Notes under the pieces: generated by a model | What the model saw: the letters and a program-made list of their open reading frames with translations, nothing else | Told to the model about the DNA's origin: nothing | Databases searched by the model: none | Origin: Candidatus Hadarchaeales archaeon | GTDB taxonomy: Archaea; Hadarchaeota; Hadarchaeia; Hadarchaeales; Hadarchaeaceae | DNA length: 33,669 bases | NCBI GenBank assembly: GCA_038851075.1 | Contig: JAWCLG010000011.1 | Span: 1 to 33,669 of the forward strand | Reading direction: 5' to 3' | Part shown: in pieces, positions 1-20,564 of the stretch | Position numbering within the stretch: the first letter of the stretch is position 1 | Layout of the letters: every line of letters starts with the position of its first letter | Made by a program: the position numbers and the translations under genes

Positions 1-5
1 ACCAG

Positions 6-3000
6 GTGACCCTGCTCAACGCACTGAAGTCTCCATTCTACACCAGCAGCTGGGTGCAGGGTGAGAATTTCAAGTATCCTGGAGAGCTTGTCGACGAGGA
101 GTACTACTGGAGGGTGAAAGCGAAGGACGACGCGGGAAACGTTGGAGAAGACTGCGGGGACACGTGGTTCAGGGTGGACACCAAGCCACCGGTTGCTCCT
201 TCCCTCAGCTGGCCAACCTACGGCGAAAACGTGAACGACAGCACGCCTAACCTCAGGTGGACGTACGATTACGCGGGGGGCGAGGTCGGAGGCGGAAACG
301 AGAAGTCGAAGCCCGCCTCATACAGAGTCTGGATCGCACACGATGTCGACTTCACAGAACTAGTTTTGGACTCGGGTTGGATGGCAGATCCAAACCTCGA
401 GGACGTGAATGAGAACTGGGAGGTGCCCGTTGAGAACCTCCTCCCGGACAACGTCAACCACTACTACTGGAAGGTGGGAATCAAGGACGCGGCCGGAAAC
501 GTCGGGGAGAACTCCGAGGTGTGGATATTCTGGATCGATACAGTCAAACCGCCTAAGCCGGATCCCGTCTCTCCGGAAAACAACTGGTGGGTGTCATCGA
601 CCGAGAACCTCCAGTGGACATCTGTTGAGGACAACTCGAAACCCGTCGTTTACAGGGTATGGGTCGCTCGCGATGAGGAGTTCACGATGGTGGACAGGGA
701 CTCCGGATGGAGAACCGAGAACTGGTGGAAGATCTCCCCGCCGCTTGTGGACAACTGGTACTGGTGGAGAGTGCAGGCAATGGATAACGCTGGAAACCTG
801 AGCGAAAATGCAGACGCCAGAAGATTCCTGGTGGACACGCAGGCTCCCGGAAAGACCCAGCTTCTGGCACCAGTTGAGGGGGAGAACATGAAGGACAACA
901 AACCAACCCTGCGCTGGGTGGACAACATAGAGGACCCAGCCCAGCCGGTGCTCTACTACGTGTGGGTGGCGAAAGATCAGGGGTTCACGCAGATTTACTG
1001 GGAAACAGGGGCATGGATCGAGGAGAACGAAGTGGAGGTTGGAACAGAACTTCCCGACAACGTCTACTACTGGAAGGTCGGGATAATGGACAACCTCGGA
1101 AACATCGGTGAGAACTCCGACTATTCCTGGTTCAGAATCGACGTGACCAAGCCGCCAAAGCCAGACCTGTACAGGCCTGCGAATAACACTTCAACCGAAA
1201 ATCTATCAGTTGAGCTGGAGTGGTCTCATCTCACAGACGAATCGGGCATAACTTATCATCTCCAAGTTGGAGCCGGATCAAACTTCGAAATGCTGGTGGA
1301 TAACGACAAGCTGAAGGAGAACATTTACCAGTTCACGGCCCCGCGGACAGGACTGTATGTCTGGAGGGTCTGCGCATACGACAACGCGGGGAACATCGGA
1401 GAATGGTCGGACAACTACGTGTTCACAGTTGGCATGTGGCATCTTGCAGAGAACTGGAGCGGGACGATGGGGGTGCTGGTTTCATGGCTGCAGGCGGAGG
1501 GATGGTCCGGGGATGTGAACGCGCCCGTGGGATGGGTGAGCACGGATACATGGGCGGGATCAGTTGTAGTGCCTGTTTCATGGTTCACAGCCGAATTCTG
1601 GAGCGGAGCGATGGGGGCACCGGTTGCTTGGAGCGAGACGGAGTCCTGGAATGGATCAGTTAACGCTCCCGTCAGCTGGCTGAATGTTGAGTCCTGGAAT
1701 GGATCAGTTAACGCTCCCGTTTCATGGCTGCAGGCCGAGGTATGGTCCGGTGCTTTGAACGCGCCTGTTGGGTGGATGAACGCCGAAACCTGGTCCGGGA
1801 GCTTGGGAACGTTCACCCCGGGCTGGTGCCTCGTGCAGAGCTGGTCAGGGGCCGTTCTAGTTCCGGTTGCTTGGGTGCAGACGATGACATGGAGCGGGAC
1901 GGTGAGTGCTCCGTCCCAATGGTCAGTTGCCGAGTCATGGAACGGGTACGTCGGAGTGGTAGTTTCATGGAACGTCGGAGAAACTTGGGCAGGCGCGATA
2001 GGGGCTCCGGTGGCTTGGGTGAACACGGAAACTTGGGCCGGAAAGGTATACGCGCCCGGTCCCGCACCAACCCTGATTTACCCGTCCAACAACTCAGCCG
2101 TACACGATAACGCCCCAACGTTCACATGGGACAACACTTGGGTCGCGGACAACTGGGAGATATGGGTCGACAATGACAGCAACTTCGACACTCCGGTATT
2201 CGTGGAGAACACGGTCAATAACTTCTTCAACTCGCCCCAGCTTGGAGATGAGAACTATTACTGGCGCGTGCGTGGCTGGCTCGGTCCGTCCGCATCTCCC
2301 TTCACAACGTATTCCGTGCTCATAGACACAGTCAGGCCGACCGTGCCGTTGAAGTCTGACATAGCAGAGGACACAGGAAAATCTGACTCTGACATGATAA
2401 CCAATGACGACAACATAAAGTTCATGTGGGGCGCCTCCTCTGATAGTTCAAACTCACCAACCGGAGAAAAGGCAGGAATCAGATGGTACGAGATAATTGT
2501 TGACGATGATTTGTTGCCTCCGTACGAAATTGCAGAAAATGTGGCGGGGCAGGAGATTTACATAGAGGTTCCGGAGGGCACGTGGAAGTGGATAGTCAGG
2601 GCCTGGGACTGGGCCGGCAACGTGAGCGAAAACGAGGCTCCATGGACGCTGATCGTCGACTTCACGCCTCCCGCTCCTCCCTCACTAATAACGCCGGCCA
2701 ACAACTCCGCAACGAAACAGACATCGGCCCTCCTGTTCCAGTGGGAGAACATGGCGAACTCCGACAACATCTGGAAGTACTGGGTTCAGATAGACAACGA
2801 CCAGAGCTTTCCTGGGAACCATCCGAACAAAACGAATACATATCCCACCGTCAACTACATCACAAAGTACTTCATCTATGACCCCAAGGATGAGAACTAC
2901 TGCTGGCGCGTGAAGGCTTACGACATCGCCGGAAACGAAGGCGACTGGTCTCAGGTTTGGTGTGTGATGATAGACACCAGAGCACCGATGTCTCCTGGAA

Positions 3001-4620
3001 AGTATCAACCTGTGGACAATGAAAACATAACATCATCAACCGTCCTATTCGTCTGGGGCGAGACTAATGACCAGTCTTACTCTCCAACTGGTGAGGTGGC
3101 GGGAATCGAGACCTATGAGATATGGATAGATGAAGATCTGAACTTTGGCTCGCCATATCTCGTCGAGAACTTCTCCCCGACTGGAACGGGATCCGTGGAG
3201 TTCGAAATTTCCCTGCCGGACAACGTATACTACTGGCGCGTCAGAGCCTGGGACAGGGCGGGCAACCCCGGAGGCTTCGAAACCGCGTGGAAGTTCACAG
3301 TGGACAACACGCCACCTTCCGCACCGGATCTGGTTTCGCCAGATAACCTGACCATGATGAACGACAACAGACCCACATTCACCTGGACAGAGGTATATGA
3401 TGTGACCGGAGTGACATACGAGATATGGATCGATAACGTTCCGACCTTTGACGATAACCCGTTCGTGGACAACACGGAAAACACGTTCTATGCTCTTAGC
3501 CTCGAGAACGCGCTCACGGACGAGAACTACTACTGGAAGGTCAGGGCGTGGGATGGAAAGAACTGGAGCGAGATCAGAAAGCCCGGACCGTTTTCTGGAA
3601 TAAATTCCCTGCTGCTGGACACGAGAGGACCGCCGGCTCCGAGTTCCTCTCCTGTGGTACAGATAGAGGGCAAGTGGTATGCCGGAGACGGGCTTATAAC
3701 CGGAGACAACCAGCCGTCCGTCCACTGGAACATGGTCACAGACCTCTCGTACTCTCCGACAGGAGAGGTCTCAGGGGTGAGGTATTACGAGCTGGAGATA
3801 GATAACGACAACGGCTTCACGTCGGTCGAATATCGTTGCTTCACATCCGACAACGTCTTCAACTACCTGGACGATAACTACCCGGTCGGAGCCGGGTTCC
3901 CGGATGAAAACTACTCCTTCAGGATCAGGGTCTGGGACTGGGCAGGGAACCACGGGGACTGGAGCCCCATCTGGAGTTTCATAGTTGACACGACACCTCC
4001 CACGGTTCCTGAACTCAAGGCACCGGATAACAATGCCGCGGAAAACGTGGGCATGGCATCCCTTGAATGGTACGATTCCTATGACGCAACGGGCGTGGAC
4101 CACTATTACATAGAGGTGGATGATGATCCTAGCTTCCTGACGCCGCTCGATCCCGGGTTCTTCTCTGATGATCCCACGAACCTAAAGACCACAGCAGTGG
4201 TGGTGACATTTCCTGAGGATGGCAGATACTACTGGCACGTTAAAGCGATCGACAAAGCTGGGAAGGAGAGTGCCTGGTCAGAAACCTGGGAGGTTGTGAT
4301 TGACTGTGTGAAGCCGCCGGTACCCGATCCTCTCACGCCGGTGGACAACTATCTCACTTCGGATAATACTCCGACTTTCCACTGGACCAGCGTTGAGGAC
4401 AACACAGAGACAACTCCACATGTGAGCGGTGTGGAAAACTACGTCCTTCAGATAGATGACAGCCCGGCGTTCACCTCTCCTGCCAGCTTCGTCACGCAGG
4501 AGAATATGCTCACCATCCCGGCCGACAATTCCCTCGCGGTCGGCGCATGGTACTGGAGGGTGTGCGCTGTCGACAGGGCCGGGAACCAGGGCGACTGGTC
4601 GGAGAACTTCAGGATAAACA
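6..4620 (+). repeat. About 13 FN3/Ig-like protein modules (~100 aa) in the giant protein, interrupted by the Trp-repeat block
   Basis: Recurring YYWRV.A.D.AGN....W.F.VDT.PP..P.L..P signature; counted by eye as 5 copies before 1437 and 8 after 2063. Confidence 0.85.
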
Positions 4621-7600
4621 TCACGGATTTGGTCCTGACTCTCGCGCTATCTGACAACATCGTCAACCCAGGGGAGAACTTCGCGATCTCCGGAAGGGCG
4701 AGCTGGCAACCCGAGAACCTGCCCGTTGACAACAGACCGGTGTATGTGTACGTTGATGACAATCTCATCGATACGTTGTACACCGACAACTACGGATGCT
4801 ACTCCACCTCTTACCTGACGAACGCCCTCGGTACGCATCAGGTCAAGGTGGCGATAACTGACAACCACGGAGTATATGAGGAAAACGTGGTGACCTTCAG
4901 CGTCGAGACGCTCACTGTGACAATAATGCTGGACGATTACGTGGCCAACCCCGGAGAGAGCATCGCGATATCCGGCCAGGTCCTTCGCTGGCTGGACTGG
5001 GAAAATGCTGTTCCAGAGAACAGGAGCGCGACTGACATTGTGATATACGTTGATGAGAACTATCAGACCACGCTTCACCCTGATGAAAATGGAAACTACA
5101 GCGGAGAGATCACGGCTCCTGAAAACCTGGGAGCGCACACAGTGTATGTGGACATCGAGAATCCGGACGGCATCACGGGAGATAACCAGACCAACTTCCA
5201 GGTCAAAACCGTGCACCTCACGTTCTCATTCGAACGCAGCATGGCCAACCCTGCCGAGAGGCTGAGGTACTCAGGTGTGGCTACCCTACTGCCGGACGGG
5301 ACCAAGGTGAGCGGCAAGACGGTCGAGGTCTGGCTGGGGGACACCCTCAAGAGCACCGCCCAGACCAACCCAGACGGGAGCTACTCGGGCGAGGTCATAG
5401 TACCCGAGGAACTCGACACGTACCAGTACACGGCAAAACTCTGGGCAGACGACTGGATAAAGGGAGAGAACACCGCGCTGGTCACCGTGAAGAGAATAGA
5501 TCTAGTAGCGTTTTACGATGACAACACGGTGAACCCCGGGGAGCCGAACCAGATTTACGGAACCGCTTTCCTCCTGCCAGACAACGAGCCGGTGGTAGGA
5601 CAGCAGCTCACGTTCACGCTTGAGGATGATCAGGGCAGGATCGTTGGAGGGGCAACGGGATACACCGGCCCGACCGGAGCGTACGCCATCAGCTTCACCA
5701 CGCCCAACGTCTATGGAGTCTACAGAGGAATGGTCAGCATCACCTATCAGGTGTTTTCGGCGGTTACGGTGAGGTATCTCTACGTGAAGGCGGGCGTTAT
5801 CCCGCTGTACTTCGACGACAACGTTGTGAACCTGACGCAGGACTTCTGGATTTCCGGAACAGCCAGAGTGCTGCCAGACAACGCTCCGGTCGCAAACGCA
5901 GAGGTGAAGATATACAGGGACGGAATACTGTACGACAACACGGTCACGAACGAAAACGGACAGTACTCGTATAAGTACACCGAGGACTCGATCACTCCCG
6001 AAAAACGCACAATAAAGGTAGTTGCGGTAAGCCCGGAGGGAATAGTGTGCGAAAACACGCAGTACTTCGAAAAGCGCGTCCTTCAGTACGAGCAGCTCGT
6101 GTCATACGACTCCCACGATCAGTTCGACAGCGTGCTGAATCCGGGAGAGAACTTCTACCCGAGCGTCCTGATCGAAGAGAATAACGGGACACAGGCTTTC
6201 AAAGTTCAGAAATCTCTGGACACCGACCTGTTGAGGGCCAAGGTCGGAGCAAACGTCTACGTGATGTCGCACATAAGGGAAGGTCGCTGGAAGGTGCCCA
6301 GCCTCCAAACCGCACCGAGCTCTCCCGGACAGTACTATATCATGATCGACGTCATGGGTTCCAGCGAGAACGGGATAACCACGCCCGCTTACGGCCTGCA
6401 GATGTTCTACTATGTCAAGACTCTCTCACTGGAGCTGCGCGCCACCGACTACACGGTGAACCCAGGCCAGCAGAATGTGGTTGCATACGGCACGGTCAGG
6501 CTTGTTCCGGATGGGACTCCGGTCGCTGGAGAAAACGTGGCGATATCGTTTGCCGGTGAAAACTATCTGTTAACCACGGCCGATAACGGATACTACTCAT
6601 GCGTTCTGAACATCCCAATGACCTCCAGAGTTGAGAACCTGAGGGCGAGCATAGTGGACTCCAGAGGGCTTGAGATGGAGAACACGGTGACGATAACGGT
6701 AGGGTCAATAGATATATCGTTAATCCCGGAGACTGAGATAGCAGGAGAGGGGCAGCCGTTCAGAATGTATGGAACTGCGTTGCGCAGGCCAGAAAATACT
6801 CCTGTTCAAAACACTGAGGTGAAGTTCTACATTGACAACTCATACATCAAGAGCGTGTATACCGGCACAAATGGTGCGTATGAAATCATACACACCTTCA
6901 CGACGCGCGGAATATACGAGATCAGAGTGGAGATTGTCGACGCTGATGGTATAGTCGGGGAGAACTACAGGAGTGTAATCGCTGGCAGGCCGCTGCGCAT
7001 CTGGGACAACGTTGGCATAAAGGACGTTTCTGGCACGCCTATACAGGCTACGATGAAGTTCTACGAGCAGGGCACCTCGAATGTCGCTTTTCAGATCACC
7101 ACATCCTCGGACGGTACCTATGACGTCTGGGGATTCGCAGGATACTTCGATCTGGAGATAAGCTTCCCAAGCCAGGCCGTGACCCTGAAATATGAGAACT
7201 TAAACCTTGACGGGTTCAGCGCCTGGGATGAGATAAGCAGATTCATAGAGGCCGACACACCGCCTTCGGCGTATGTTTCAGTTCCGGGAACCAGGGGCAC
7301 TCTCAGGGGAATCGCGATCCGTCCACATCAGGTGTTCACAGAGAACTACAGCAGGCTGGTCGTCACATTCACGTACAGCAGCTACATCCAGCAGGTGGGA
7401 GACATATGGTTCCTAAGAGTGTACAGGACCAAGGGATACCAGCTTGAGAACCGTATGGTGGAGGGAGGCTGGAAGGAACTGGGAGGGACTCTGGATGTTG
7501 CCAACTACAAGATCACCGCGATAGACAACGAGGACCCGCCCGCGGTGGCGTACGTCGTGGCGGAGTACGACCCGCTCTCCGCGGTTCTCCTCACTTTTGA

Positions 7601-10600
7601 AAATGCGGTTTCCACAATTCAGGAAACCGCCGGGCTTCTTGGAGAGATGTCGCAGAGCCTCATGGATAACGCCCTCCTGCTCGCCAGCGTTGTGGATAAT
7701 CTGAAGCAGACCGTGGGCAATCTCGCGACACAGGAGAACATCGCGGCACTGGCGGATATACAGGGGCAGATAGCAAACATCCTGGACAACGTCTCCGGCA
7801 TCCTCAACCAGATTGTGAATCTCGAAAACTCTTCACTGGGGCTTACAGAGAACCTCTGGAGCGCGTTCATCCAGCTGTCACAGCTTCTCGAGAACGCGTC
7901 CAGAAGCTCTCAGGTCGACGAGATAAGGGAGCAGCTCTCCCAGGCATTTGCGGTGCTTCAGGGCCTGGCTCCCAGAGAGTCTCTGAGCATAGACCCATCC
8001 ATAGCCTGGCTTGAAATCTACCAGGGTGAGACCACGGAGTTCTTCGTCAGAATAACAAACACGTCCACATCGGACCTGTCGGTTCATCCTGAGAAGGGCG
8101 TCAGAAACTGGCCTGAGTCTCTTGAGCTCGACAGATCTATCAGGATGTCTTTCGATCCCTCTGTCCTGAGCCTGAAGTCAGCGGAAACCCGCACGCTGAC
8201 GGTAACGGTAGTGGCCGGAACGAACGTGCCGGCGGGCGTATACTCCGGAGAGGTGCTGATCAAGGGCACAGGCGTGGAGAAGGCGCTCCCCGTTGCCATG
8301 AGAGTGCGTCCGTGGGCTAGGGGACTCTTTGACCTCAGCGTGACCTCGCTTGTCAGGACCAGCTATCCTGGAGGAAAGGTCCCGGTGGAGGTACAGCTGA
8401 AGAACATGGGTATCCAGGCCGCTGACGCCGAGGTAACTGTCACCCTGGAGAGCGTATCAGGTGCTAGGCTGGCCACCGTGATGGGCGAGACGGTCAAGGT
8501 GGATGTGAGCGAGACCAAGGTTCAGACATACGAGATCGAGGTGCCGGTTGATATAGAGGAGGGGCAGTACGTTATCAAAGCCGTTGCGGTTTATCACTGG
8601 AACGGAGATAATGTGACGATTTCAGGAGTGGACACGGTGGAGATTGAAAAGTTCATAAAAGTCACGCTTAGAACGCTGGCGCGCGAGGTTGAGCCCGGCG
8701 GAAAGATTCCTTTTGAGGCGGAGTTCAGAAATACCGGGTCGGAGTGGACCGAGGTCAACGTTAAGCTGCAGCTCCTGACACCGGCTGGAGAGCCCTGCTG
8801 GTCGGAATCTGTCAGAATATCTCTCGAGCCAAACTCTGTTGAGAGAAGAACGTATGAGGCGGATGTACCATCAGACACCGCTGGAGGAACGTTCGTGCTC
8901 ACGGCATCCGGCGAATACGTGTGGCTGGAAAAGGCGATTTCAATCACCGAGGCAGAGGCAGAGGTTCAGGTGAAAAGCCCGCCGTTCACCTTCTTCGGCA
9001 TCTCAATACCCTGGTTGATAATCTCGGCCGTGGCAATAGTGGCCGCGGGTATCGCTGGAAGGTTTGGATACAGGTACTACCAGAAGAGAAAAGCTGCAAG
9101 GCGCAGGTTTGAGGCGAGACTGTTTACCGCCGAGCTTCCGAAACCCGGGCCGGACGCCATTAAGATAGGAAAGCTCGCGGAGGCACCTGGAGACGCTCAC
9201 CTTGACATAAATGACCTGAGAATGCATGTCATGACGGCAGGCGCCACCGGAGGCGGAAAAACTATCTCGTCGATGGTAATTGCCGAGGAGGCGCTGCTGA
9301 AGGGCAGGAACGTGATTGTCTTCGACCCGACCGCACAGTGGACCGGGTTCCTGAAGAAGTGTACCTCCGAGAAGATGCTGTCATATTACAAGAACTTTGG
9401 GATGAAGGATAGCGATGCCAGGGGATTCCCTGGTGTGGTCAAGCTTGTAACAAACCCGAGGCAGAAGCTGGACATGAAGGAGCTGCTCGGTGAGGAGGCA
9501 AGAGGAAAGATCACCGTGTTCGTGATAGAGCGTCTGAAGCCGGGAGATATGGACGTGTTCGTAACCAACGTAATACAGTCCATATTCGAGTCACAGCCGA
9601 TGGAGTATCCGGGGCTGAAGACCCTGCTCATATTCGACGAGGTACACAGGCTTCTCCCGAGGTTCGGAGGGACCGGTGCCGGAGTCATACAGCTCGAGCG
9701 CGCCGTCCGTGAGTTCAGAAAGTGGGGAATAGGAGTGATGCTCGTGTCCCAGGTCATGGGAGACTTTGAGGAGGAGATAAGATCAAACATAAGGACTCAG
9801 GTTCAGTTCTGGACCAGGGAGAAGGAGGAACTTGACAGGATATCAAGGACATACGGAGAGGAGCACATGCGTTCGGTCTCCAAGGCCCCGGTTGGATTCG
9901 GCATGCTAGTCAATCCGGATTACAACAGAGGCAGGCCTTACTACATCAACTTCAGGCCGATTCTGCACGAGGTTCAGAGGCTGGATCCAAAGCAGCTCGA
10001 CAGGTACTACGCGGCCGATGAGAGGATAGAGAACATCAAGTACAAGCTGAAGAAGCTGGAGGAGAAAGGAGTTGATGTCTTCGATCTGCGCATTGAACTC
10101 GGGCTGGCAATGCGCAAGCTTGAGGAGGCTTCGTTCGACATGGTTGACGCTTATCTCGAGTCGCTCGAGCCGAGGGTGGAGAGCGTGTGCGCCCAGCACA
10201 AGATGGCCGGATTGAAGCGGGAGATTGAGCTGAGGTCGGAGAAGGAGATAAAGGAGACGCAGATGGCGGCGCTCAGAGAGCGTGAGCGCAGGCTCGGAGC
10301 GGTTGCCAGACGCCCGCCGGAGATTGTGGAAGCCTACAAGGAACTGCTCGCGCGCGCAACTCCGGTGGCAACAGGAGAGACAGGGAAGCCGCTCAAGGAG
10401 GAAGAGGTGGTGCATCCGATGGCGGAGAAGGGACCGCCAAAGAGCGAGGAGGAGATAGAGAAACAGATGGAGGAGATTGAAAAGCCGAAAGAGGCGGCTG
10501 AGAAGAAGGTCGTGGAGGAGAAAGAGGAGCAGGTCAAAAAGGCAAAAGAGGAGAAGAAACCGGCCGCAAAGGCCAAGGCGAAAAACGGCGCTGCGAAAAA

Positions 10601-10625
10601 GTCCAACGGTAAAGGCAGAAGGTAG
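6..10625 (+). CDS. Giant cell-surface protein (5' truncated): FN3/Ig-like repeats, Trp repeats, Ig-like repeats, coiled coil, CARDB-like domains, single TM helix, C-terminal HerA/FtsK/VirB4-like (DUF87-type) ATPase
   Basis: The frame is open from the window edge and begins mid-repeat with no signal peptide, so the true start is upstream. TM helix FFGISIPWLIISAVAIVAAGIAG (~8990-9060) is followed by basic YYQKRKAARRR. Walker A GATGGGKT 9240-9263, VIVFDP, Walker B LLIFDEVH 9624-9647 and REFRKWGIGVMLVSQ are the characteristic HerA/FtsK-superfamily motifs. Lys/Glu-rich tail. Confidence 0.9.
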   Translation: MTLLNALKSPFYTSSWVQGENFKYPGELVDEEYYWRVKAKDDAGNVGEDCGDTWFRVDTKPPVAPSLSWPTYGENVNDSTPNLRWTYDYAGGEVGGGNEKSKPASYRVWIAHDVDFTELVLDSGWMADPNLEDVNENWEVPVENLLPDNVNHYYWKVGIKDAAGNVGENSEVWIFWIDTVKPPKPDPVSPENNWWVSSTENLQWTSVEDNSKPVVYRVWVARDEEFTMVDRDSGWRTENWWKISPPLVDNWYWWRVQAMDNAGNLSENADARRFLVDTQAPGKTQLLAPVEGENMKDNKPTLRWVDNIEDPAQPVLYYVWVAKDQGFTQIYWETGAWIEENEVEVGTELPDNVYYWKVGIMDNLGNIGENSDYSWFRIDVTKPPKPDLYRPANNTSTENLSVELEWSHLTDESGITYHLQVGAGSNFEMLVDNDKLKENIYQFTAPRTGLYVWRVCAYDNAGNIGEWSDNYVFTVGMWHLAENWSGTMGVLVSWLQAEGWSGDVNAPVGWVSTDTWAGSVVVPVSWFTAEFWSGAMGAPVAWSETESWNGSVNAPVSWLNVESWNGSVNAPVSWLQAEVWSGALNAPVGWMNAETWSGSLGTFTPGWCLVQSWSGAVLVPVAWVQTMTWSGTVSAPSQWSVAESWNGYVGVVVSWNVGETWAGAIGAPVAWVNTETWAGKVYAPGPAPTLIYPSNNSAVHDNAPTFTWDNTWVADNWEIWVDNDSNFDTPVFVENTVNNFFNSPQLGDENYYWRVRGWLGPSASPFTTYSVLIDTVRPTVPLKSDIAEDTGKSDSDMITNDDNIKFMWGASSDSSNSPTGEKAGIRWYEIIVDDDLLPPYEIAENVAGQEIYIEVPEGTWKWIVRAWDWAGNVSENEAPWTLIVDFTPPAPPSLITPANNSATKQTSALLFQWENMANSDNIWKYWVQIDNDQSFPGNHPNKTNTYPTVNYITKYFIYDPKDENYCWRVKAYDIAGNEGDWSQVWCVMIDTRAPMSPGKYQPVDNENITSSTVLFVWGETNDQSYSPTGEVAGIETYEIWIDEDLNFGSPYLVENFSPTGTGSVEFEISLPDNVYYWRVRAWDRAGNPGGFETAWKFTVDNTPPSAPDLVSPDNLTMMNDNRPTFTWTEVYDVTGVTYEIWIDNVPTFDDNPFVDNTENTFYALSLENALTDENYYWKVRAWDGKNWSEIRKPGPFSGINSLLLDTRGPPAPSSSPVVQIEGKWYAGDGLITGDNQPSVHWNMVTDLSYSPTGEVSGVRYYELEIDNDNGFTSVEYRCFTSDNVFNYLDDNYPVGAGFPDENYSFRIRVWDWAGNHGDWSPIWSFIVDTTPPTVPELKAPDNNAAENVGMASLEWYDSYDATGVDHYYIEVDDDPSFLTPLDPGFFSDDPTNLKTTAVVVTFPEDGRYYWHVKAIDKAGKESAWSETWEVVIDCVKPPVPDPLTPVDNYLTSDNTPTFHWTSVEDNTETTPHVSGVENYVLQIDDSPAFTSPASFVTQENMLTIPADNSLAVGAWYWRVCAVDRAGNQGDWSENFRINITDLVLTLALSDNIVNPGENFAISGRASWQPENLPVDNRPVYVYVDDNLIDTLYTDNYGCYSTSYLTNALGTHQVKVAITDNHGVYEENVVTFSVETLTVTIMLDDYVANPGESIAISGQVLRWLDWENAVPENRSATDIVIYVDENYQTTLHPDENGNYSGEITAPENLGAHTVYVDIENPDGITGDNQTNFQVKTVHLTFSFERSMANPAERLRYSGVATLLPDGTKVSGKTVEVWLGDTLKSTAQTNPDGSYSGEVIVPEELDTYQYTAKLWADDWIKGENTALVTVKRIDLVAFYDDNTVNPGEPNQIYGTAFLLPDNEPVVGQQLTFTLEDDQGRIVGGATGYTGPTGAYAISFTTPNVYGVYRGMVSITYQVFSAVTVRYLYVKAGVIPLYFDDNVVNLTQDFWISGTARVLPDNAPVANAEVKIYRDGILYDNTVTNENGQYSYKYTEDSITPEKRTIKVVAVSPEGIVCENTQYFEKRVLQYEQLVSYDSHDQFDSVLNPGENFYPSVLIEENNGTQAFKVQKSLDTDLLRAKVGANVYVMSHIREGRWKVPSLQTAPSSPGQYYIMIDVMGSSENGITTPAYGLQMFYYVKTLSLELRATDYTVNPGQQNVVAYGTVRLVPDGTPVAGENVAISFAGENYLLTTADNGYYSCVLNIPMTSRVENLRASIVDSRGLEMENTVTITVGSIDISLIPETEIAGEGQPFRMYGTALRRPENTPVQNTEVKFYIDNSYIKSVYTGTNGAYEIIHTFTTRGIYEIRVEIVDADGIVGENYRSVIAGRPLRIWDNVGIKDVSGTPIQATMKFYEQGTSNVAFQITTSSDGTYDVWGFAGYFDLEISFPSQAVTLKYENLNLDGFSAWDEISRFIEADTPPSAYVSVPGTRGTLRGIAIRPHQVFTENYSRLVVTFTYSSYIQQVGDIWFLRVYRTKGYQLENRMVEGGWKELGGTLDVANYKITAIDNEDPPAVAYVVAEYDPLSAVLLTFENAVSTIQETAGLLGEMSQSLMDNALLLASVVDNLKQTVGNLATQENIAALADIQGQIANILDNVSGILNQIVNLENSSLGLTENLWSAFIQLSQLLENASRSSQVDEIREQLSQAFAVLQGLAPRESLSIDPSIAWLEIYQGETTEFFVRITNTSTSDLSVHPEKGVRNWPESLELDRSIRMSFDPSVLSLKSAETRTLTVTVVAGTNVPAGVYSGEVLIKGTGVEKALPVAMRVRPWARGLFDLSVTSLVRTSYPGGKVPVEVQLKNMGIQAADAEVTVTLESVSGARLATVMGETVKVDVSETKVQTYEIEVPVDIEEGQYVIKAVAVYHWNGDNVTISGVDTVEIEKFIKVTLRTLAREVEPGGKIPFEAEFRNTGSEWTEVNVKLQLLTPAGEPCWSESVRISLEPNSVERRTYEADVPSDTAGGTFVLTASGEYVWLEKAISITEAEAEVQVKSPPFTFFGISIPWLIISAVAIVAAGIAGRFGYRYYQKRKAARRRFEARLFTAELPKPGPDAIKIGKLAEAPGDAHLDINDLRMHVMTAGATGGGKTISSMVIAEEALLKGRNVIVFDPTAQWTGFLKKCTSEKMLSYYKNFGMKDSDARGFPGVVKLVTNPRQKLDMKELLGEEARGKITVFVIERLKPGDMDVFVTNVIQSIFESQPMEYPGLKTLLIFDEVHRLLPRFGGTGAGVIQLERAVREFRKWGIGVMLVSQVMGDFEEEIRSNIRTQVQFWTREKEELDRISRTYGEEHMRSVSKAPVGFGMLVNPDYNRGRPYYINFRPILHEVQRLDPKQLDRYYAADERIENIKYKLKKLEEKGVDVFDLRIELGLAMRKLEEASFDMVDAYLESLEPRVESVCAQHKMAGLKREIELRSEKEIKETQMAALRERERRLGAVARRPPEIVEAYKELLARATPVATGETGKPLKEEEVVHPMAEKGPPKSEEEIEKQMEEIEKPKEAAEKKVVEEKEEQVKKAKEEKKPAAKAKAKNGAAKKSNGKGRR
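1437..2063 (+). repeat. 13 tandem 16-aa Trp-rich repeats (consensus WxxxExWSGxVxAPVx; 48-nt period)
   Basis: Units such as WLQAEGWSGDVNAPVG, WSETESWNGSVNAPVS and WLNVESWNGSVNAPVS (one unit has 17 aa). Exact 32-nt direct repeat GAGTCCTGGAATGGATCAGTTAACGCTCCCGT at 1641-1672 and 1689-1720. Confidence 0.95.
4621..6985 (+). repeat. About 8 second-class Ig-like modules (macroglobulin/carboxypeptidase-regulatory-like) in the giant protein
   Basis: Repeated D..VNPGE...I.G....LPD..PV and T..NG.YS motifs, e.g. LSDNIVNPGENFAISG, LDDYVANPGESIAISG, YDDNTVNPGEPNQIYG, ATDYTVNPGQQNVVAYG. Confidence 0.75.
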
Positions 10626-10694: not shown

Positions 10695-11486
10695 ATGAGG
10701 GCGGCGGTTAAAGTGCTGGCGATATCTGCGGTGGCCGCACTGGTCTTCACCGGGGTCTATCTATCGCTTAAGGTGACTTTTGAGCTGGCAGGGTTGGATT
10801 TCGTGGCAGATGGCGACTGTTTTATCCGGGTCAGTTACCACACGAACCGCCCCGCGGTTGCTAGGCTTTTGTCATATGATAACAGGGTGCTGGAGGAGGT
10901 GGAGCTGCCTTCTGGATCAGACCATGCCGAAATTAAAATAACAGAGAACCGCAGCAATCCCAAAGAGCCGGTTTTTCTGATAATAGAACAGGGTGGCAGA
11001 GTTATCTGGACCGGTGGTTTCTCGATGCCGGTTGTCCAGCTAAAGCTCATTGGCATAGTGGAGTGGGGCTGGGATCCTGATGCCGGCCTGAGCACCATCA
11101 AGTGCTTGGCTGTCCAGATAAGCAACGGAGGAGGGCTACCAGCGCATGTGTACAGGATAAGCGGTCTGCTGGACGGAAGACTCGTTGGAGGGACTTCAAC
11201 CGAGTGGGAGCCTGCTGGAGAGGGAATTGTGGACAGATGGATAATGCCTGGTGCCGAGGACAATCTGACCGTGGAGTGGAGTGGACCGTCGCTTTCACCA
11301 GGATACCACGGATTCAAGCTCGTCGCCGAGGACATTGACGGTGAAGAAGTCGCAGGTATGGTGTTCCCAGCCTTCGTCAACGTTCCAAGCGAGTACATTC
11401 ACGGCGGGAGGATGGTCGATGAGTGGAGCGGGGAAGTCGGGGCACCGGCTGGATGGTACAGATCGGAGAACTGGAGATTGAGGTAA
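10695..11486 (+). CDS. Membrane-anchored or exported beta-rich protein with a C-terminal Trp-repeat motif
   Basis: N-terminal hydrophobic segment VLAISAVAALVFTGVYLSL; beta-strand-rich body; ends GRMVDEWSGEVGAPAG-WYRSENW, in register with the 16-aa repeat of the giant protein. Confidence 0.8.
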   Translation: MRAAVKVLAISAVAALVFTGVYLSLKVTFELAGLDFVADGDCFIRVSYHTNRPAVARLLSYDNRVLEEVELPSGSDHAEIKITENRSNPKEPVFLIIEQGGRVIWTGGFSMPVVQLKLIGIVEWGWDPDAGLSTIKCLAVQISNGGGLPAHVYRISGLLDGRLVGGTSTEWEPAGEGIVDRWIMPGAEDNLTVEWSGPSLSPGYHGFKLVAEDIDGEEVAGMVFPAFVNVPSEYIHGGRMVDEWSGEVGAPAGWYRSENWRLR

Positions 11487-12425: not shown

Positions 12426-13331
12426 TCAGACGAGGGCGTCGAGCAGCTTTGATATCCCGGTCTCGACCACCTTGATCTCCCTCTCGATCCTGTCTAGTCT
12501 CCTCTGATTTTTCTCATCGTTTTCCTTAAGGGTCTCCACCATCTCCTTTAGCTTTGCGAACTCCACCGGGTCAAGCTCGGACTTCACTTTGGCGGCCAGC
12601 TGGGTGGAGACGAACTTTTCAAAATCAGCTTTGGGCAAGGCCTGCTTAACAGCAGTGTCCACCTGGCTGAGGGTCTTCGACATGTTTTTCACGCTCTCCT
12701 CCACGACTCCGAGCCTCACCAGCATGTCTGTAACCTCCTTCAGCCTTCTCTGAAACTCCATAAAGGCGCTCATCACCTTGTCAGACATCAGCTCGACTTC
12801 ATCCCTGAGTTTCTGTATCCGCATTATGTTTCTCCTAGCATCGTCCGCCATACCCACGACCGTTTCGAACCCCTTGAACTTGGCCATGGTCTCCCTGTAA
12901 CCGCCAATCTCCTTTCTCAGTTCCTTTATCTCCTCGCTCACTAGGGAGAACTTCGTCTTCAGACCCTCTATGTCGTTATCCCTCTTCATTATCATTGACC
13001 TGAACTCCTCGGGCTTTATGCCCTCGAGAGCACCCAAGGCTCTCTCAGCCTTGGCCTTGGCATCAGCGCTGTCCTTTGCCTGGCTGAGGATCATGGACCT
13101 CAGCTCACCGACCTTCTCGTTGAGCATGGATATTCTCGTGTCGGTCGGTTCCCTGAGTGCCATGAGACCCATCACGCTGGCCTCCAGCTGATCCATTTTG
13201 ACCTTTAGTGCCTTGTCAATCTTAGATTCCAATGCAGGCTCGGGCGCGGGAGATTCCTCAGGTTTTTTCTGTTCTTCGGGCTTTTCTGAGGATGCCTCCT
13301 TCTTTTTACCGCGTTTTTTCAGCATCTTCAT
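12426..13331 (-). CDS. Cytoplasmic coiled-coil protein of unknown function
   Basis: 301 aa, heptad-patterned and rich in E/K/L/M/R, no TM segment, charged disordered N-terminus; GGTGA lies just upstream of the ATG AAG ATG start region. Confidence 0.8.
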   Translation of the reverse strand: MKMLKKRGKKKEASSEKPEEQKKPEESPAPEPALESKIDKALKVKMDQLEASVMGLMALREPTDTRISMLNEKVGELRSMILSQAKDSADAKAKAERALGALEGIKPEEFRSMIMKRDNDIEGLKTKFSLVSEEIKELRKEIGGYRETMAKFKGFETVVGMADDARRNIMRIQKLRDEVELMSDKVMSAFMEFQRRLKEVTDMLVRLGVVEESVKNMSKTLSQVDTAVKQALPKADFEKFVSTQLAAKVKSELDPVEFAKLKEMVETLKENDEKNQRRLDRIEREIKVVETGISKLLDALV

Positions 13332-13445
13332 TCACCATAATCTATGGGCACTGGCATTTTATCTTTACCGCTGGTTGGCAAATCTCTCGGGCTTGGTTAT
13401 CCTCCAGCGGAGGGGCTTAATACCACAGAAACAGGATTTGAATTG

Positions 13446-13931
13446 ATGGAGCGAAACGAAATAGCGATAGTTCTGCTCCTAGCCATGCTGGCCTGCGCGT
13501 GGGCTGTCTGGCTATGGGGCGGTTCGTTTGGCGCCGGCACCTCAAATGATAATCTGGAAGGCCTGTTGGACAGAACATCCCTTTTCAGGGGTTATCGGGC
13601 ATATATGGATAACTCGCTGGGCCTCTGTTTCACCACAGGGTCGAGCATGGAGCCGGCCCTCAGGACCGGAGATACGGCTATATGGGTCAAAGTTCCATTT
13701 GAAAATCTTCAAGTTGGAGATGTCATCGTTTACTCACATACCGTCACAGTAGGAGAGAACAGGGGTCAGATCTTCATAGTCGTTCACAGGATCATTAACA
13801 CAGTGGAGGACGGAGTTTTCACGAAGGGAGACAATCTCTCCAGCCCTGATGCTTACAAAGTGAGACCGGGAGATTTTATAGGTCTTGTTAGGGGCGTCCT
13901 GTTCACATCCTCCGGATCGTGGGAGAGGTGA
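13446..13931 (+). CDS. S26 signal peptidase I, ER/archaeal (Sec11/SipW) type, predicted active
   Basis: N-terminal TM; box B TGSSMEPALRTGD (Ser nucleophile), VGDVIVY, IVVHRII (His base), TKGDN...PD. Start moved from 13344 to ATG 13446, with TTAATA ~24 nt upstream. Confidence 0.85.
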   Translation: MERNEIAIVLLLAMLACAWAVWLWGGSFGAGTSNDNLEGLLDRTSLFRGYRAYMDNSLGLCFTTGSSMEPALRTGDTAIWVKVPFENLQVGDVIVYSHTVTVGENRGQIFIVVHRIINTVEDGVFTKGDNLSSPDAYKVRPGDFIGLVRGVLFTSSGSWER

Positions 13932-13935
13932 GAGC

Positions 13936-14370
13936 ATGAGGAGAGCAACTGTTAAAAAGATTGAGAGCGGGATTGTCCTAGTTTTACTTTTCGCAACGAC
14001 TTTCAGCTGGATATTTGCTGTTTCGAGGCTGTTTTCCGAGCAGAAGCTGAATGACGTGTCGGAATATTTTGACAACTTCAGGGTTCTGCTCAGTGATGAG
14101 ATCAATATAACATCCGCTGGAAACTGGGACATGGGGCAGACCATCAGGGAGGGCGATATGGTCATGTGGGTACGGCCTGATCAGGGAAAGGTTGGAACCG
14201 GTGACCTGGTGCTGTGCAGGGATGAAGATAATTCAGTTATCGCACGCAGGGTAATTTCAACCGATAACGGATGCTTTCAAGTCAGGGGAGACTCGCTGGG
14301 AAGTGAGACTTATTCAGTTTCTTTTACAGACATCGTCGGACAGATTATCGGAGTGATTTACGAGAGGTGA
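13936..14370 (+). CDS. S26 signal-peptidase-like paralogue lacking catalytic residues
   Basis: Co-linear with the upstream peptidase (TIREGDMVMW, TGDLVL, RRVI, VRGDS, DIVGQIIGV) but SSMEP is WDMGQ and VHRI is ARRV; GAGGTGA RBS overlaps the upstream stop. Confidence 0.75.
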   Translation: MRRATVKKIESGIVLVLLFATTFSWIFAVSRLFSEQKLNDVSEYFDNFRVLLSDEINITSAGNWDMGQTIREGDMVMWVRPDQGKVGTGDLVLCRDEDNSVIARRVISTDNGCFQVRGDSLGSETYSVSFTDIVGQIIGVIYER

Positions 14371-14374
14371 GGTT

Positions 14375-15040
14375 ATGTCAGCTCCCGCTGAGGAAGTAAA
14401 GATTGGTAAAAAGGACCTGATTAAACTTTTCGTGAAGAAGCGTTGGAAGCACCTGATCCTCGCTGGTGCGTGTATCGCGGTCCTGTCCTTCGTGTTCTGG
14501 CTTGTATTCAAGCCGCCTGAGCCACAGCCAGCCTGGGTGTCAGGGCCGATTTTCAACCAGCCGGGAGAAAACGGCCTTCTCGCCGCGGTTGGTGAGAACA
14601 CCGGGATCGAGAATATATACCTCGCGGCATGGGGAAAATATGGGCCCGCGTACAATCCGAGGGAAGACCTAGCCGCACAGGCAGGTGCGGTTGACGGGGT
14701 GATAAGCTCCAGCGGGCAGTGCGTGCAGATATGGGCGAACAGGCGGTTCGACATAGTCATTGCGGTCAGGGCGAAGACTCCGGAAATAGCCTACGTGGCG
14801 AGGGAAAACATGTGGGTGACGCTTGCCGCGACGGTAAACGGGTTCACCATAGGTCCCGAAAATTCAACCGACCGTAAGGAATACGTGTTCGAGCAGTCGG
14901 GTTACGGGACTACCGAGGGATACATGCGCGTGAACGTTGTGTGGGACAACGACGGGAACGGTTACGAGCTCATGCCGCAGGATAACCTGAAGATAATGTT
15001 GCTGGGCTTCTACACCTGGAGATATCCTGGAAGACTTTAA
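14375..15040 (+). CDS. Exported or membrane-anchored protein, paralogue of the 15110-15922 product
   Basis: GAGGTGAGG RBS; KKRWKH followed by hydrophobic helix LILAGACIAVLSFVFWLVF; shares six ordered motifs with the convergent gene. Confidence 0.8.
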   Translation: MSAPAEEVKIGKKDLIKLFVKKRWKHLILAGACIAVLSFVFWLVFKPPEPQPAWVSGPIFNQPGENGLLAAVGENTGIENIYLAAWGKYGPAYNPREDLAAQAGAVDGVISSSGQCVQIWANRRFDIVIAVRAKTPEIAYVARENMWVTLAATVNGFTIGPENSTDRKEYVFEQSGYGTTEGYMRVNVVWDNDGNGYELMPQDNLKIMLLGFYTWRYPGRL

Positions 15041-15073
15041 GTTGCACCTCAGTGTACCCAGCCCCAGCTGATC

Positions 15074-15097
15074 AAATAAAAAAATAAAAAAAAGAAA
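15074..15097 (-). terminator. Oligo-T archaeal terminator for the 15110-15922 gene
   Basis: Minus strand TTTCTTTTTTTTATTTTTTTATTT starting 12 nt after the TAG. Confidence 0.7.
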
Positions 15098-15109
15098 TGC
15101 GCTGCTGGA

Positions 15110-15922
15110 CTAGCTCCAGATATACAGCGCAATTGTGTCCAAGCTAAGGGTTCCGCCGGCCGGTAGTTTGAAGCCAGCCCCTCCATTGTTGAACACGCAG
15201 TTGACCCTTGCATATCCACTAGCATACGCTCCGTTCTGTGTCCACGGCACGTTGTTGTCAAAGACGAACTCATAGCCAGTGTTCTGCGTGTTTTCAGTCC
15301 CTGAGTGTGCCCCGCTGAAGCTGAGATACCCATACATATTGTCCATGTTCACGTATGCCACGAGCTTCGCATCCTGCTTGTTTCCGGTGTAGCCTGCGTC
15401 GGCCTTAACCTTGCAAGCCATGACTATGGTGAACGGATACTCGTACGGAATCGTTGCTGTGTCAGAGTTTGCGGTTATTATAGCGTCAGAGGCTCCATCC
15501 AGCAACCAGTTGTCATTGTTTTCCCCGGATATGTGCCTGCCGAAATTGGTTGAGTTTGGTGCAAGATTGTCGCAGATGAGCACGTTCTCTATCCCACTGT
15601 TTTCAGGTACGCCTGCGGTAAAGCCAAGCAGAAACTGTCCATCGGCGGTCAGCAGCTGCCCCGAGATCAGCGAAACGGTCCCCTGTCCAGAAACCGTTGA
15701 TGGTGTGGACAGTGCCCATCCAGCTAGCCCTGCCACTATCACTATTGCAACAGCTGCGGTAACCCATTTCCACTGTGCCATTCTTTTTTCCACCTCCATT
15801 TTTTTTATTGGTGCCCTCGCCAGAGGTCCGGGCATAAAATCAAGTCTCCCCTTGCAACGCGGGCATTCCTTCGGGTGTTGCACCCTCGGGTTCCACTCAT
15901 ATCCACAGCGGGGGCACCTCAT
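15110..15922 (-). CDS. Exported protein with N-terminal C4 Zn ribbon, TM/signal helix and Gly/Asn/Ala-rich beta domain (candidate filament or surface subunit)
   Basis: CPRCGYEW.PR...PKECPRCK, then WVTAAVAIVIVAGLAGWAL; alternative start at Met48 (15781) with GGAGGTG RBS. Confidence 0.8.
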   Translation of the reverse strand: MRCPRCGYEWNPRVQHPKECPRCKGRLDFMPGPLARAPIKKMEVEKRMAQWKWVTAAVAIVIVAGLAGWALSTPSTVSGQGTVSLISGQLLTADGQFLLGFTAGVPENSGIENVLICDNLAPNSTNFGRHISGENNDNWLLDGASDAIITANSDTATIPYEYPFTIVMACKVKADAGYTGNKQDAKLVAYVNMDNMYGYLSFSGAHSGTENTQNTGYEFVFDNNVPWTQNGAYASGYARVNCVFNNGGAGFKLPAGGTLSLDTIALYIWS

Positions 15923-15946
15923 ACACTTAAATCTAGTCCCCCCAAC

Positions 15947-15960
15947 TTATTTAAGGGTTG
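15947..15960 (-). promoter_or_regulatory. Putative BRE/TATA promoter for the Zn-ribbon exported-protein gene (leaderless)
   Basis: Minus strand CAACCCTTAAATAA ending 24 nt before ATG 15922. Confidence 0.6.
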
Positions 15961-15967
15961 TTTTTTG

Positions 15968-16180
15968 CTACTATGATGATTTCAGCTCTCTCTCCATCAT
16001 AGTAATAGTTCGCTCTTTATCGAAAGAATTAAAAGTAGTATCCATAAAAACCTTGGAAAAAACGCTATTTTTGCGATTTTTATGCGTGCAACGTTTTCAA
16101 CGAAAAATCGGCGTTTTTTCGCATTATTGGCGAATGCGCCTGATCTCTACTATGATGACTCCTGTAAGTATACTATGATA
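15968..16180. repeat. Four TACTATGAT boxes flanking an A/T-tract-rich imperfect palindrome
   Basis: TACTATGATG 15969-15978 with inverted CATCATAGTA 15995-16004; CTACTATGATGA repeated at 15968 and 16147; TACTATGATA at 16171; GAAAAAACGC 16056/GCGTTTTTTC 16111 and CGATTTTT 16074/AAAAATCG 16103. Confidence 0.8.
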
Positions 16181-16474
16181 ATATTCAGAGAATGTCAGAG
16201 GGGATGTTAAAAATATTCACCGTTGCTTACAGAAAGGGCACTTCCCATGAGATGACAAACGTAGATGAAACATGCGGAAATTGCCGGTTTGTCTGCCGCA
16301 CCGCAGTTCAAAAGCCTTCCACGAACCTCAAGTTCTTTCCGCAGCCAGGCGTTTTTTCCCGCCGGCACGGCTTGATTTATGGCTGGCATGTTGGGATGCA
16401 AGCGTTTTCTCACAGGTCCAGTGATGCCGAGCGATAGTATTAAATCAGGCTCCAATCAAGAAAAAAAGACCAGT

Positions 16475-17728: not shown

Positions 17729-18219
17729 TGTCAAGAGCGTGGGTTTTCGGTGACGACATAAGCACTGACGACATAATCGCAGGAAGATATCTGGTCAAGC
17801 ACGACCCGAAGGAGCTCGGAGCACATGCGATGGAGAATATAGATCCCACTTTCTCAAAAAAGGTGAGGCAGGGGGACGTGATCGTGGGTGGTAAGAACTT
17901 CGGTTGCGGGTCAAGCAGGGAACAGGCGCCCATAACGCTGAAGGCTGCAGGGGTTTCAGCGGTGGTCGCGGAGTCGTTCGCCAGGATATTCTACCGCAAC
18001 GCTATAAATCAGGGACTGCCGGTTCTCTCGTGCAAGGGAATAAAAGGGGAGTTCAAGAATGGCGATGAGGCTAGGATTGACCTGAGGGCGGGCACAGTCA
18101 GGAACCTGAGCACAGGCAAGATATTCAGGTTCGAGCCCTTCCCGAAGTTCATGCTGGACATACTGCGGGCCGGGGGTCTCGTCCCGTACATGAAGAAGGG
18201 CAGGGGCTCCAGGCGCTGA
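17728..18219 (+). CDS. leuD: 3-isopropylmalate dehydratase small subunit
   Basis: FGDDISTDDII.GRYLV, NFGCGSSREQAP, AESFARIFYRNAINQGL; TGATG overlap with leuC. Confidence 0.9.
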   Translation: MSRAWVFGDDISTDDIIAGRYLVKHDPKELGAHAMENIDPTFSKKVRQGDVIVGGKNFGCGSSREQAPITLKAAGVSAVVAESFARIFYRNAINQGLPVLSCKGIKGEFKNGDEARIDLRAGTVRNLSTGKIFRFEPFPKFMLDILRAGGLVPYMKKGRGSRR

Positions 18220-18268
18220 CATTCGGTCAGGTTAAAAGAGCATGACGCCAAGGTTAAAGCGTGAGGCT

Positions 18269-19348: not shown

Positions 19349-19422
19349 AGTGCCGTTCTAGCGGTTCTCCGCGGCGCCACAAAATTTTAAGCCTGTGTGG
19401 TGGATAGGCGAACGGTAAATCA

Positions 19423-20556: not shown

Positions 20557-20564
20557 GGATTTCG

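Follow-up and report, generated by a model that had tools for sequence, protein, structure and literature searches.

Organization of the locus

The window analysed here is a complete contig of 33,669 nucleotides (G000:C11:1-33669) from an archaeon of the order Hadarchaeales, whose genome comprises 1.0 Mb in 29 contigs and is 88% complete. Its first gene, the subject of this analysis, encodes a giant protein in which a long ectodomain is followed by a single transmembrane (TM) helix and an ATPase of the HerA/FtsK/VirB4 superfamily. Due to the truncation of this gene by the contig edge, the ectodomain length of 2996 amino acids (aa) is a minimum. The following features were assigned to it:

3..10625 (+): giant gene, first gene of the contig, a single frame of 3540 codons that is open at its 5' end
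3..8990 (+): ectodomain, aa 1-2996, from the frame translation and Pfam; N-terminus lost at the contig edge
8991..9059 (+): single TM helix, aa 2997-3019, the sole Kyte-Doolittle peak of at least 1.6 (peak 2.30)
9060..9098 (+): basic stop-transfer stretch and juxtamembrane helix, aa 3020-3032, from charge count and AlphaFold model
9099..9980 (+): HerA/DUF87-type RecA-like ATPase core, aa 3033-3326, from Pfam and AlphaFold
9240-9263 (+): Walker A, GATGGGKT, aa 3080, from the translation
9624-9647 (+): Walker B, LLIFDEVH, aa 3208, from the translation
9708-9728 (+): REFRKWG, arginine-finger region, aa 3236, from the translation
9747-9752 (+): SQ sensor, S3249-Q3250, from the translation
9987..10352 (+): C-terminal helical domain, aa 3329-3450, from AlphaFold helices
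10353..10625 (+): charged tail rich in K and E, disordered, with the stop codon, from the translation and low model confidence

An earlier note on this DNA, made from the letters alone, had described one continuous frame, and the frame 3..10625 (+) indeed runs from the ectodomain through the TM helix, the basic stretch and the ATPase to the helical domain and the charged tail. The ectodomain of about 3000 aa that it reported corresponds to the 2996 residues preceding the TM helix, again as a lower bound, and the Walker A, Walker B and REFRKWG...SQ motifs were all found in the translation where it had placed them. An AlphaFold model of aa 3012-3470 (predicted local distance difference test, pLDDT, 90.1; predicted template modelling score 0.85) comprises a RecA-type core, followed by a helical domain and finally a tail that is disordered. 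This agrees with the helical bundle and charged tail of the same note, as the model contains helices between residues 318 and 439 (318-343, 349-363, 367-387, 402-425 and 429-439 in model numbering), followed by disorder; the pLDDT is mostly above 90 in the C-terminal domain up to about model residue 420 and below 50 from residue 443. A 21-nucleotide tandem repeat is located at 10449-10494, within the region encoding the charged tail. In an alignment of 37 family sequences, D201, H204, R225-G231, S238 and Q239 (alignment numbering) are invariant, and the G/T/G/G/K positions of Walker A are kept in at least 90% of the sequences. The catalytic motifs are intact.

The TM helix was located by a Kyte-Doolittle scan of all 3540 aa with 19-aa windows and a threshold of 1.6; the second-best window anywhere in the protein scored 1.34. 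In the 20-residue flanks of the helix, lysine or arginine occurs nine times after it and twice before it. The AlphaFold model shows residues 2-22 as an unbroken helix that leads from the membrane into the ATPase core. By the positive-inside rule, the ATPase is predicted to be cytoplasmic. The same holds for the family: among 88 ATPase-bearing open reading frames (ORFs) from 87 loci, lysine and arginine are commoner after the helix than before it in 80, so that the placement of ATPase and immunoglobulin (Ig)-like repeats on opposite sides of the membrane, which the earlier note had presupposed, agrees with the charges of the window protein and of its relatives. Walker A is present in all 88 ORFs, and in 81 of them a hydrophobic helix ends 20-120 aa, mostly 53-68 aa, before it. 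Judged by these sequences, the spacing between TM helix and Walker A is constant across the family.

The join between ectodomain and ATPase

Giant repetitive genes break assemblies, and both the giant gene and a second paralogue on contig C25 of the same genome begin at contig edges, which would speak for a mis-assembly that joined the ectodomain to the ATPase. To check the junction, contigs from public sequencing runs were aligned to positions 8500-9700. One of them (X1, which may stem from the source sample) spans the complete interval unbroken, a second (X2, from a different sample of the same study) spans 8651-9208 with 0 differences, and a third (X4, from another study) spans 8802-9045. 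As the contig from the second sample crosses the junction without a difference, the chimeric join about which the earlier note had been cautious is excluded. The same junction is moreover found in 81 of the 88 ORFs, which come from independent assemblies, and we see practically no room left for an assembly artifact.

Homologues carry the ectodomain as well. A protein search with the C-terminal 581 residues, in which the best 2313 candidates by shared words were scored, yielded at least 148 proteins of 1947-6195 aa with the same C-terminal ATPase. The fusion is genuine and conserved, and the architecture recurs in hundreds of independent assemblies.

Affiliation of the ATPase domain

The assignment of the ATPase to the HerA/FtsK/VirB4 superfamily is supported by Pfam, by profile searches of the PDB and by Foldseek alike. 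Two Pfam families matched above their cut-offs, namely DUF87 with 33.4 bits (“Helicase HerA central domain”; cut-off 23.2) and HerA_C with 31.8 bits (cut-off 22). Weaker matches to ResIII, T4SS-DNA_transf, TrwB_AAD_bind, Zot (19.3 bits, cut-off 20.3) and AAA_10 overlap them. When a family profile was compared with the PDB, the eight best matches were of HerA type (9c1m, 9x1l, 4d2i, 8wiv, 8xau, 8ziq, 8yho and YjgR); DotL, TrwB and FtsK ranked below them, and no VirB4 chain was found among the 14 matches at E <= 1. Foldseek with the AlphaFold model also placed HerA structures on top, and the PADLOC models that matched the ATPase were mad8 and HerA. On the predicted model, the fold by itself does not separate HerA from VirB4; the sequence profiles favour HerA/DUF87 over VirB4.

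The likeness to characterised HerA proteins (e.g. 4d2i from Sulfolobus) comprises the best profile and fold match as well as the alignment of Walker A and B, the arginine-finger region and the SQ sensor. The window protein differs from them in being anchored in the membrane, in having an additional C-terminal helical domain and in lacking both a HAS barrel and a NurA neighbour. The HAS barrel is the N-terminal domain of HerA; Pfam found no such family here, and 33 residues lie between the end of the TM helix (aa 3019) and the start of DUF87 (aa 3053). A NurA nuclease gene was not found among the window neighbours by family scans. The NCBIfam equivalogs of HerA are far under their cut-offs (HerA_Thermprot 22.7 bits vs 800, helicase_HerA 18.9 vs 970).

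Other members of the superfamily were compared in the same way. FtsK/SpoIIIE, EssC/EccC and the phage pI/Zot proteins are membrane-tethered members or relatives of the superfamily that couple ATP hydrolysis to transport across the envelope. The window protein does not show the combination of FtsK_SpoIIIE motor domain and polytopic N-terminal anchor that marks FtsK/SpoIIIE. With VirB4 it shares the C-terminal ATPase fold, but it differs from both VirB4 and VirD4/TrwB in the preference of the profiles for HerA, in the absence of the N-terminal domain CagE_TrbE_VirB (PF03135) and in the absence of type IV secretion system (T4SS) families from the 16 recurrent neighbour clusters scanned; PF03135 was found neither in the protein nor in the 88%-complete genome. 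CedB and CedD are described as TM-anchored, HerA/VirB4-like ATPases that form homo-oligomers and are needed for DNA import in Sulfolobales (PMC11868833). They resemble the window protein as archaeal, TM-anchored ATPases of the HerA/VirB4 clade on the cytoplasmic side of the membrane, but possess a cytoplasmic VirB4-like N-domain, lack an ectodomain and have polytopic partners, CedA/CedE, for which no similar gene was found near the giant gene. In passages of Makarova 2014 (PMC4158269), the HerA-like arCOG00280 is mentioned only as virus-associated.

Ectodomain

The ectodomain contains Ig-like/beta-sandwich repeats, with Pfam matches to Ig_Rha78A_N (77 bits), Big_13 (72 bits), Big_1, MG4, TTR-52 and Ig_J. 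Its composition differs from that of the cytoplasmic part (tryptophan 4.0% vs 0.6%, lysine 3.0% vs 10.4%). At least ten copies of a 16-aa tryptophan-rich repeat of the form W-x-G-...-A/P-P/V-...-W are located at aa 501-675 (window positions 1503-2024). Tandem Repeats Finder detected no DNA-level tandem arrays in the ectodomain, the repeats of which are diverged at the DNA level. Laminin-G was not found by Pfam in the portion that is present; the N-terminal portion lies beyond the contig edge.

A stretch of 94 residues at aa 2525-2618 (window positions 7575-7856), about 380 residues outside the membrane, contains neither proline nor tryptophan and consists to 79% of L, A, E, Q, I, S, N and V. 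Its composition points to a probable helix or coiled coil outside the cell, which could drive oligomerisation of the stalk.

The missing N-terminus can be judged from relatives. A signal-like hydrophobic segment lies near the N-terminus of the relative in genome G062 (frame of 7944 aa), and in family ORFs that start inside their own locus, the first hydrophobic segment is mostly found within aa 1-56. Two further open frames at contig edges of the host genome (1517 aa and 1810 aa; G000:C18:12029-15532 (-) and G000:C22:151-345 (-)) contain the same repeat modules. Possibly they represent the N-terminal portion that is missing from the giant gene or from the C25 paralogue, and giant genes appear to break this assembly.

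Distribution and size range of the family

The source labels of the 148 proteins mentioned above include Hadarchaeales, Aenigmatarchaeota, Woesearchaeota, Pacearchaeota, Nanohaloarchaea and Micrarchaeota. An exhaustive search yielded 889 representatives at E <= 1e-3, 350 of them at E <= 1e-30, and among the 150 matches listed, which are proteins of 429-6253 aa, the ATPase mostly lies close to the C-terminal end. Of 599 candidate metagenome stretches, 504 encode a relative. Among named records, a metagenome-assembled genome (MAG) of Candidatus Hadarchaeales is the closest, with 93% identity. Within the phylum Hadarchaeota, the gene occurs in 12 of 66 genomes and 5 of 20 genera, with absence from incomplete MAGs being weak evidence, and the frames reach 7944 and 7554 aa. 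The host genome itself contains the second paralogue (2-4435 (+) of locus L025, G000:C25:1-8162), an open frame of 1477 aa at the contig edge that is 62% identical to the window protein in the ATPase.

The family spans forms of 583 aa to frames of about 7,900 aa. The 45 ORFs with both ends inside their locus measure 583-2822 aa (median 1174), a range that is skewed to short forms because the loci hold at most 8 kb of upstream sequence. In a quick, midpoint-rooted IQ-TREE phylogeny, frames of at least 2,000 aa fall in several separate clades among shorter forms. Due to this scatter, the ectodomain has probably changed in length several times, by expansion or shrinkage, while the TM-ATPase unit stayed constant.

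Two single loci may be added. In L071, two family members stand in tandem on one metagenome contig (7182-9521 (+), 779 aa, and 12977-17140 (+), 1387 aa). The host genome also encodes a separate HerA-like P-loop ORF of 266 aa (G000:C9:13879-14643 (-)) that matches the window ATPase with E 8.5e-15.

Relationship to SPEARE proteins

The earlier note had treated the architecture as without precedent, which does not stand, since the same design has already been described as SPEARE (PMC6642349, PMC10266531). Hamm 2019 (PMC6642349) describes the SPEARE proteins of Nanohaloarchaeota as up to 8,553 aa in length and mostly extracytoplasmic, with a TM helix toward the C-terminus, an ectodomain that has one or more laminin-G domains, and a conserved intracellular part that was interpreted as a type III restriction enzyme. 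According to the same source, similar sequences occur in Woesearchaeota, Aenigmarchaeota, Micrarchaeota and Altiarchaeales. Reva 2023 (PMC10266531) re-annotated the order as signal peptide, Ig repeats, TM helix, cytosolic “VirB4/TraG-like ATPase” and coiled-coil tip, rejected a nuclease and proposed a T4SS-like “straw”.

Judged by the published descriptions, the window protein shares with SPEARE the giant ectodomain of adhesion domains, the single TM helix on the C-terminal side, the cytoplasmic P-loop domain that matches ResIII, and the coiled-coil or helical tip. Its ATPase is homologous to that of giant proteins labelled Nanohaloarchaea (P0044, E 7e-112; P0027). It differs in its host, as Hadarchaeales lie outside DPANN, in the absence of a laminin-G or protease-like region from the part present here, which lacks the N-terminus, and in its downstream genes, which encode a coiled-coil protein and a MinD-like ATPase, whereas a VirB4 gene is reported for nanohaloarchaea. 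As the architecture has already been published, we regard the giant gene as a member of a known design from a new phylum. No literature joining Hadarchaeota to SPEARE was found, and Fig. S17 and Table S3 of the supporting information of Hamm 2019, where lineages with related sequences are listed, might already include relatives from Hadarchaeota. What is added here is the HerA assignment, the short forms, the conserved partner gene and the host outside DPANN.

Neighbouring genes

Three genes downstream of the giant gene are of interest:

10695..11486 (+): ORF of 263 aa with an N-terminal hydrophobic segment, from the translation; homologues only in loci L010 and L027
11556..12365 (-): MinD/ParA-type ATPase, NCBIfam minD_arch 168 bits (under the cut-off of 201.75), Pfam ParA/CbiA
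12426..13331 (-): c0, an all-helical coiled-coil protein of 301 aa of no known family, inverted relative to the giant gene

The most conserved of these is c0. Among the 68 loci with at least 1500 bp of downstream sequence, 48 have the start of c0 no more than 3 kb downstream, 44 of these on the same strand, and in a comparison of six genome-derived loci, five have it within 40 bp of the stop codon of the giant gene. It is inverted, along with the MinD-like gene, in the window and the two closest loci, L010 and L027. The C25 paralogue has a copy of its own (4469-5434 (+) of L025) 34 bp downstream, so that giant gene and c0 seem to have been duplicated as a pair. Homologues of c0 are all-helical proteins of 226-649 aa, and E72, G75, E76, R78 and P107 are invariant in the family alignment. 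The structure model of c0 is helical throughout, and Pfam and fold searches yielded no family and no recognisable fold. In the Protein Atlas, c0 falls into clusters that are all labelled “hypothetical protein” and come from DPANN archaea. A prediction of the complex between the cytoplasmic domain and c0 residues 38-301 gave a score of 0.00, which is no verdict and weighs neither way.

Many c0 proteins, among them DPANN-type members such as L068, L072, L089 and L093, have short basic N-termini resembling “MGLFGKKK”, which recall those of ESCRT-III. A relationship of c0 to ESCRT-III/PspA was considered and was not supported by Pfam and fold searches.

Another helical protein, the small c1, is encoded in the neighbourhood in 33 of 87 loci; its gene mostly comes immediately after that of the ATPase and, where c0 is present, precedes c0. 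In a sub-clade of 776-840-aa proteins (e.g. L052, L057, L080 and L098), c0 is missing downstream and c1 is found in its place; further on follow a convergent secreted protein of 558 aa that is anchored at its C-terminus, a membrane protein resembling SpoIIM and a surface protein of the CARDB family. MinD-like matches occur in 14 of 87 loci, nearly all in the Hadarchaeales-type clade of the window. The 263-aa ORF carries a single copy of the tryptophan-rich repeat of the giant protein at aa 244, at its C-terminus, which suggests a binding or assembly module common to both.

Other recurrent neighbours are CARDB and PKD surface proteins, a SpoIIM-like membrane protein and a winged helix-turn-helix regulator. 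Two adjacent and slightly overlapping ORFs of the window, 13344-13931 (+) and 13885-14370 (+), resemble archaeal signal peptidase I and S24-S26 peptidases (sigpep_I_arch 56.9 bits, cut-off 51.85, for the first; a weak Peptidase_S24 match under cut-off for the second), and this pair, located beside the gene of a giant secreted protein, is kept only in the two closest loci. The region 16379-22286 (+) is by appearance an ordinary cluster for amino-acid biosynthesis that shows synteny to locus L010 of the Hadarchaeales MAG; its first gene, the sole one scanned, encodes the large subunit of a homoaconitase/isopropylmalate dehydratase (618 bits).

Proposed mechanism and alternative explanations

Overall, the gene is best explained as that of a giant surface protein of SPEARE type in a Hadarchaeales archaeon, which we hold to be probably correct. 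A Sec-type signal peptide, missing here and seen in a full-length relative, would export an Ig-like chain of several thousand residues until the single TM helix halts the transfer, and the HerA-clade P-loop ATPase, the helical domain and the charged tail would remain in the cytoplasm. Like its characterised HerA, VirB4 and FtsK relatives, the ATPase would then form a ring directly beneath the membrane, connected to it by a spacer to Walker A that would be rigid and constant in length, and this ring would bring several ectodomains together in one place. By analogy, we consider such a ring rather likely. ATP hydrolysis may act on a polymer, either DNA or polypeptide, or on a cytoplasmic partner, and move it at the place where the adhesin contacts a cell or surface. 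The linkage of the genes suggests that c0 participates, and in Hadarchaeales the MinD-like ATPase may position the assembly. That a polymer is translocated in connection with cell contact in some form, T4SS-like and Ced-like DNA transfer taken together, is a tentative proposal that we think somewhat doubtful.

Several observations weigh against this mechanism or parts of it. Six single TM helices are unlikely to make a DNA- or protein-conducting pore on their own, and a consistently adjacent polytopic channel protein was not found when 16 recurrent neighbour clusters were scanned with Pfam; the SpoIIM-like family (10 loci) was the only membrane family in that scan. Since single TM helices are a poor conduit and no polytopic partner is conserved, the idea that the protein pumps through its own pore is weakened. 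Nuclease, pilin and T4SS families were likewise not found in the representatives of these 16 clusters or among the window neighbours. Because the HAS barrel is absent, the entrance of the ring would be unlike that of HerA. The partner c0 is missing within 3 kb in 20 of the 68 loci, including the whole sub-clade of 776-840-aa proteins, and is thus not obligatory. Hadarchaeales are not known to be ectosymbionts. Finally, SPEARE was detected by proteomics in Hamm 2019 (PMC6642349), with peptides of the ectodomain and of the TM/cytoplasmic part in different gel size fractions, so that ectodomain and ATPase are maybe split after synthesis.

Among the alternatives, DNA exchange of the CedB/CedD type, in which the adhesin joins cells and DNA is taken up or sent out by the HerA-clade ATPase, is conceivable, though we think it unlikely. 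DNA pumps dominate the superfamily, and CedD is the best NCBIfam match of the window domain, but this match scores 37.4 bits, where the cut-off is 600, and is limited to the Walker A region. The TM anchor, the homo-oligomers and the role in DNA import reported for CedB/CedD (PMC11868833) speak for such a function, and the absence of a CedA-like polytopic channel, a pilin and a nuclease from the neighbourhood speaks against it.

Equally unlikely, in our judgement, is an anchoring function that works from the inside out, with a ring that moves nothing across the membrane and instead grips or remodels c0 (with c1, and with MinD in Hadarchaeales) in order to cluster, position, tension or release the adhesin. 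Such a function would fit the soluble helical nature of the most conserved neighbours (c0 in 48 of 68 and c1 in 33 of 87 loci) and the association of MinD-type ATPases with the Hadarchaeales clade, and the constant rigid spacing between TM helix and core and the unbroken juxtamembrane helix would suit the transmission of force. Its basis is gene linkage, however, and no characterised HerA-clade protein is known to act on a coiled-coil protein.

The T4SS-like straw, in which a VirB4/TraG-type secretion ATPase would use the giant protein as a channel to inject effectors into a host cell, seems to us still less probable. The lack of VirB4 among the 14 PDB profile matches, the lack of PF03135 in the protein and in the 88%-complete genome and the lack of a T4SS Pfam family in the 16 recurrent neighbour clusters all argue against this proposal of Reva 2023. 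Ig-domain chains are also not known to form sealed conduits.

The type III restriction endonuclease originally proposed by Hamm 2019, which would degrade imported DNA, is highly improbable: the Pfam match to ResIII (PF04851, 26.5 bits, cut-off 22.5), which is found on many homologues and, being present in the window protein as well, explains how the first SPEARE annotation was misled, models the helicase/P-loop part of Res subunits and overlaps the span from Walker A to Walker B that DUF87 and HerA_C also match, whereas Pfam scans gave no nuclease family, the fold matches are HerA/VirB4 rings, and Reva 2023 (PMC10266531) concluded likewise.

Returning to the SPEARE-type surface protein, a more far-reaching version may be put forward, although we consider it improbable. 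The TM-HerA unit together with c0 and c1 would be an archaeal envelope machine that has gone unrecognised, in which a ring ATPase, covalently tied via single TM helices to a variable ectodomain of about 200 to nearly 8,000 aa, drives contact-dependent transfer or force.

Implications

SPEARE-type genes are the largest in many reduced archaeal genomes, and host attachment has been proposed for them. The design reaches beyond DPANN, into Hadarchaeales. For the members of 583-840 aa, expression and structure determination are far less demanding than for proteins of 5,000-9,000 aa, and the conserved adjoining coiled-coil gene c0 is a candidate partner that can be tested directly. If the ring couples to events outside the cell, it would be a new link between cytoplasmic energy and an archaeal surface adhesin. 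If the more far-reaching version, that of an unrecognised envelope machine, is true, its presence in Hadarchaeales, with two paralogues in only about 1 Mb of genome, would imply that these hot-spring archaea engage in obligate cell-cell interactions like those of DPANN symbionts.

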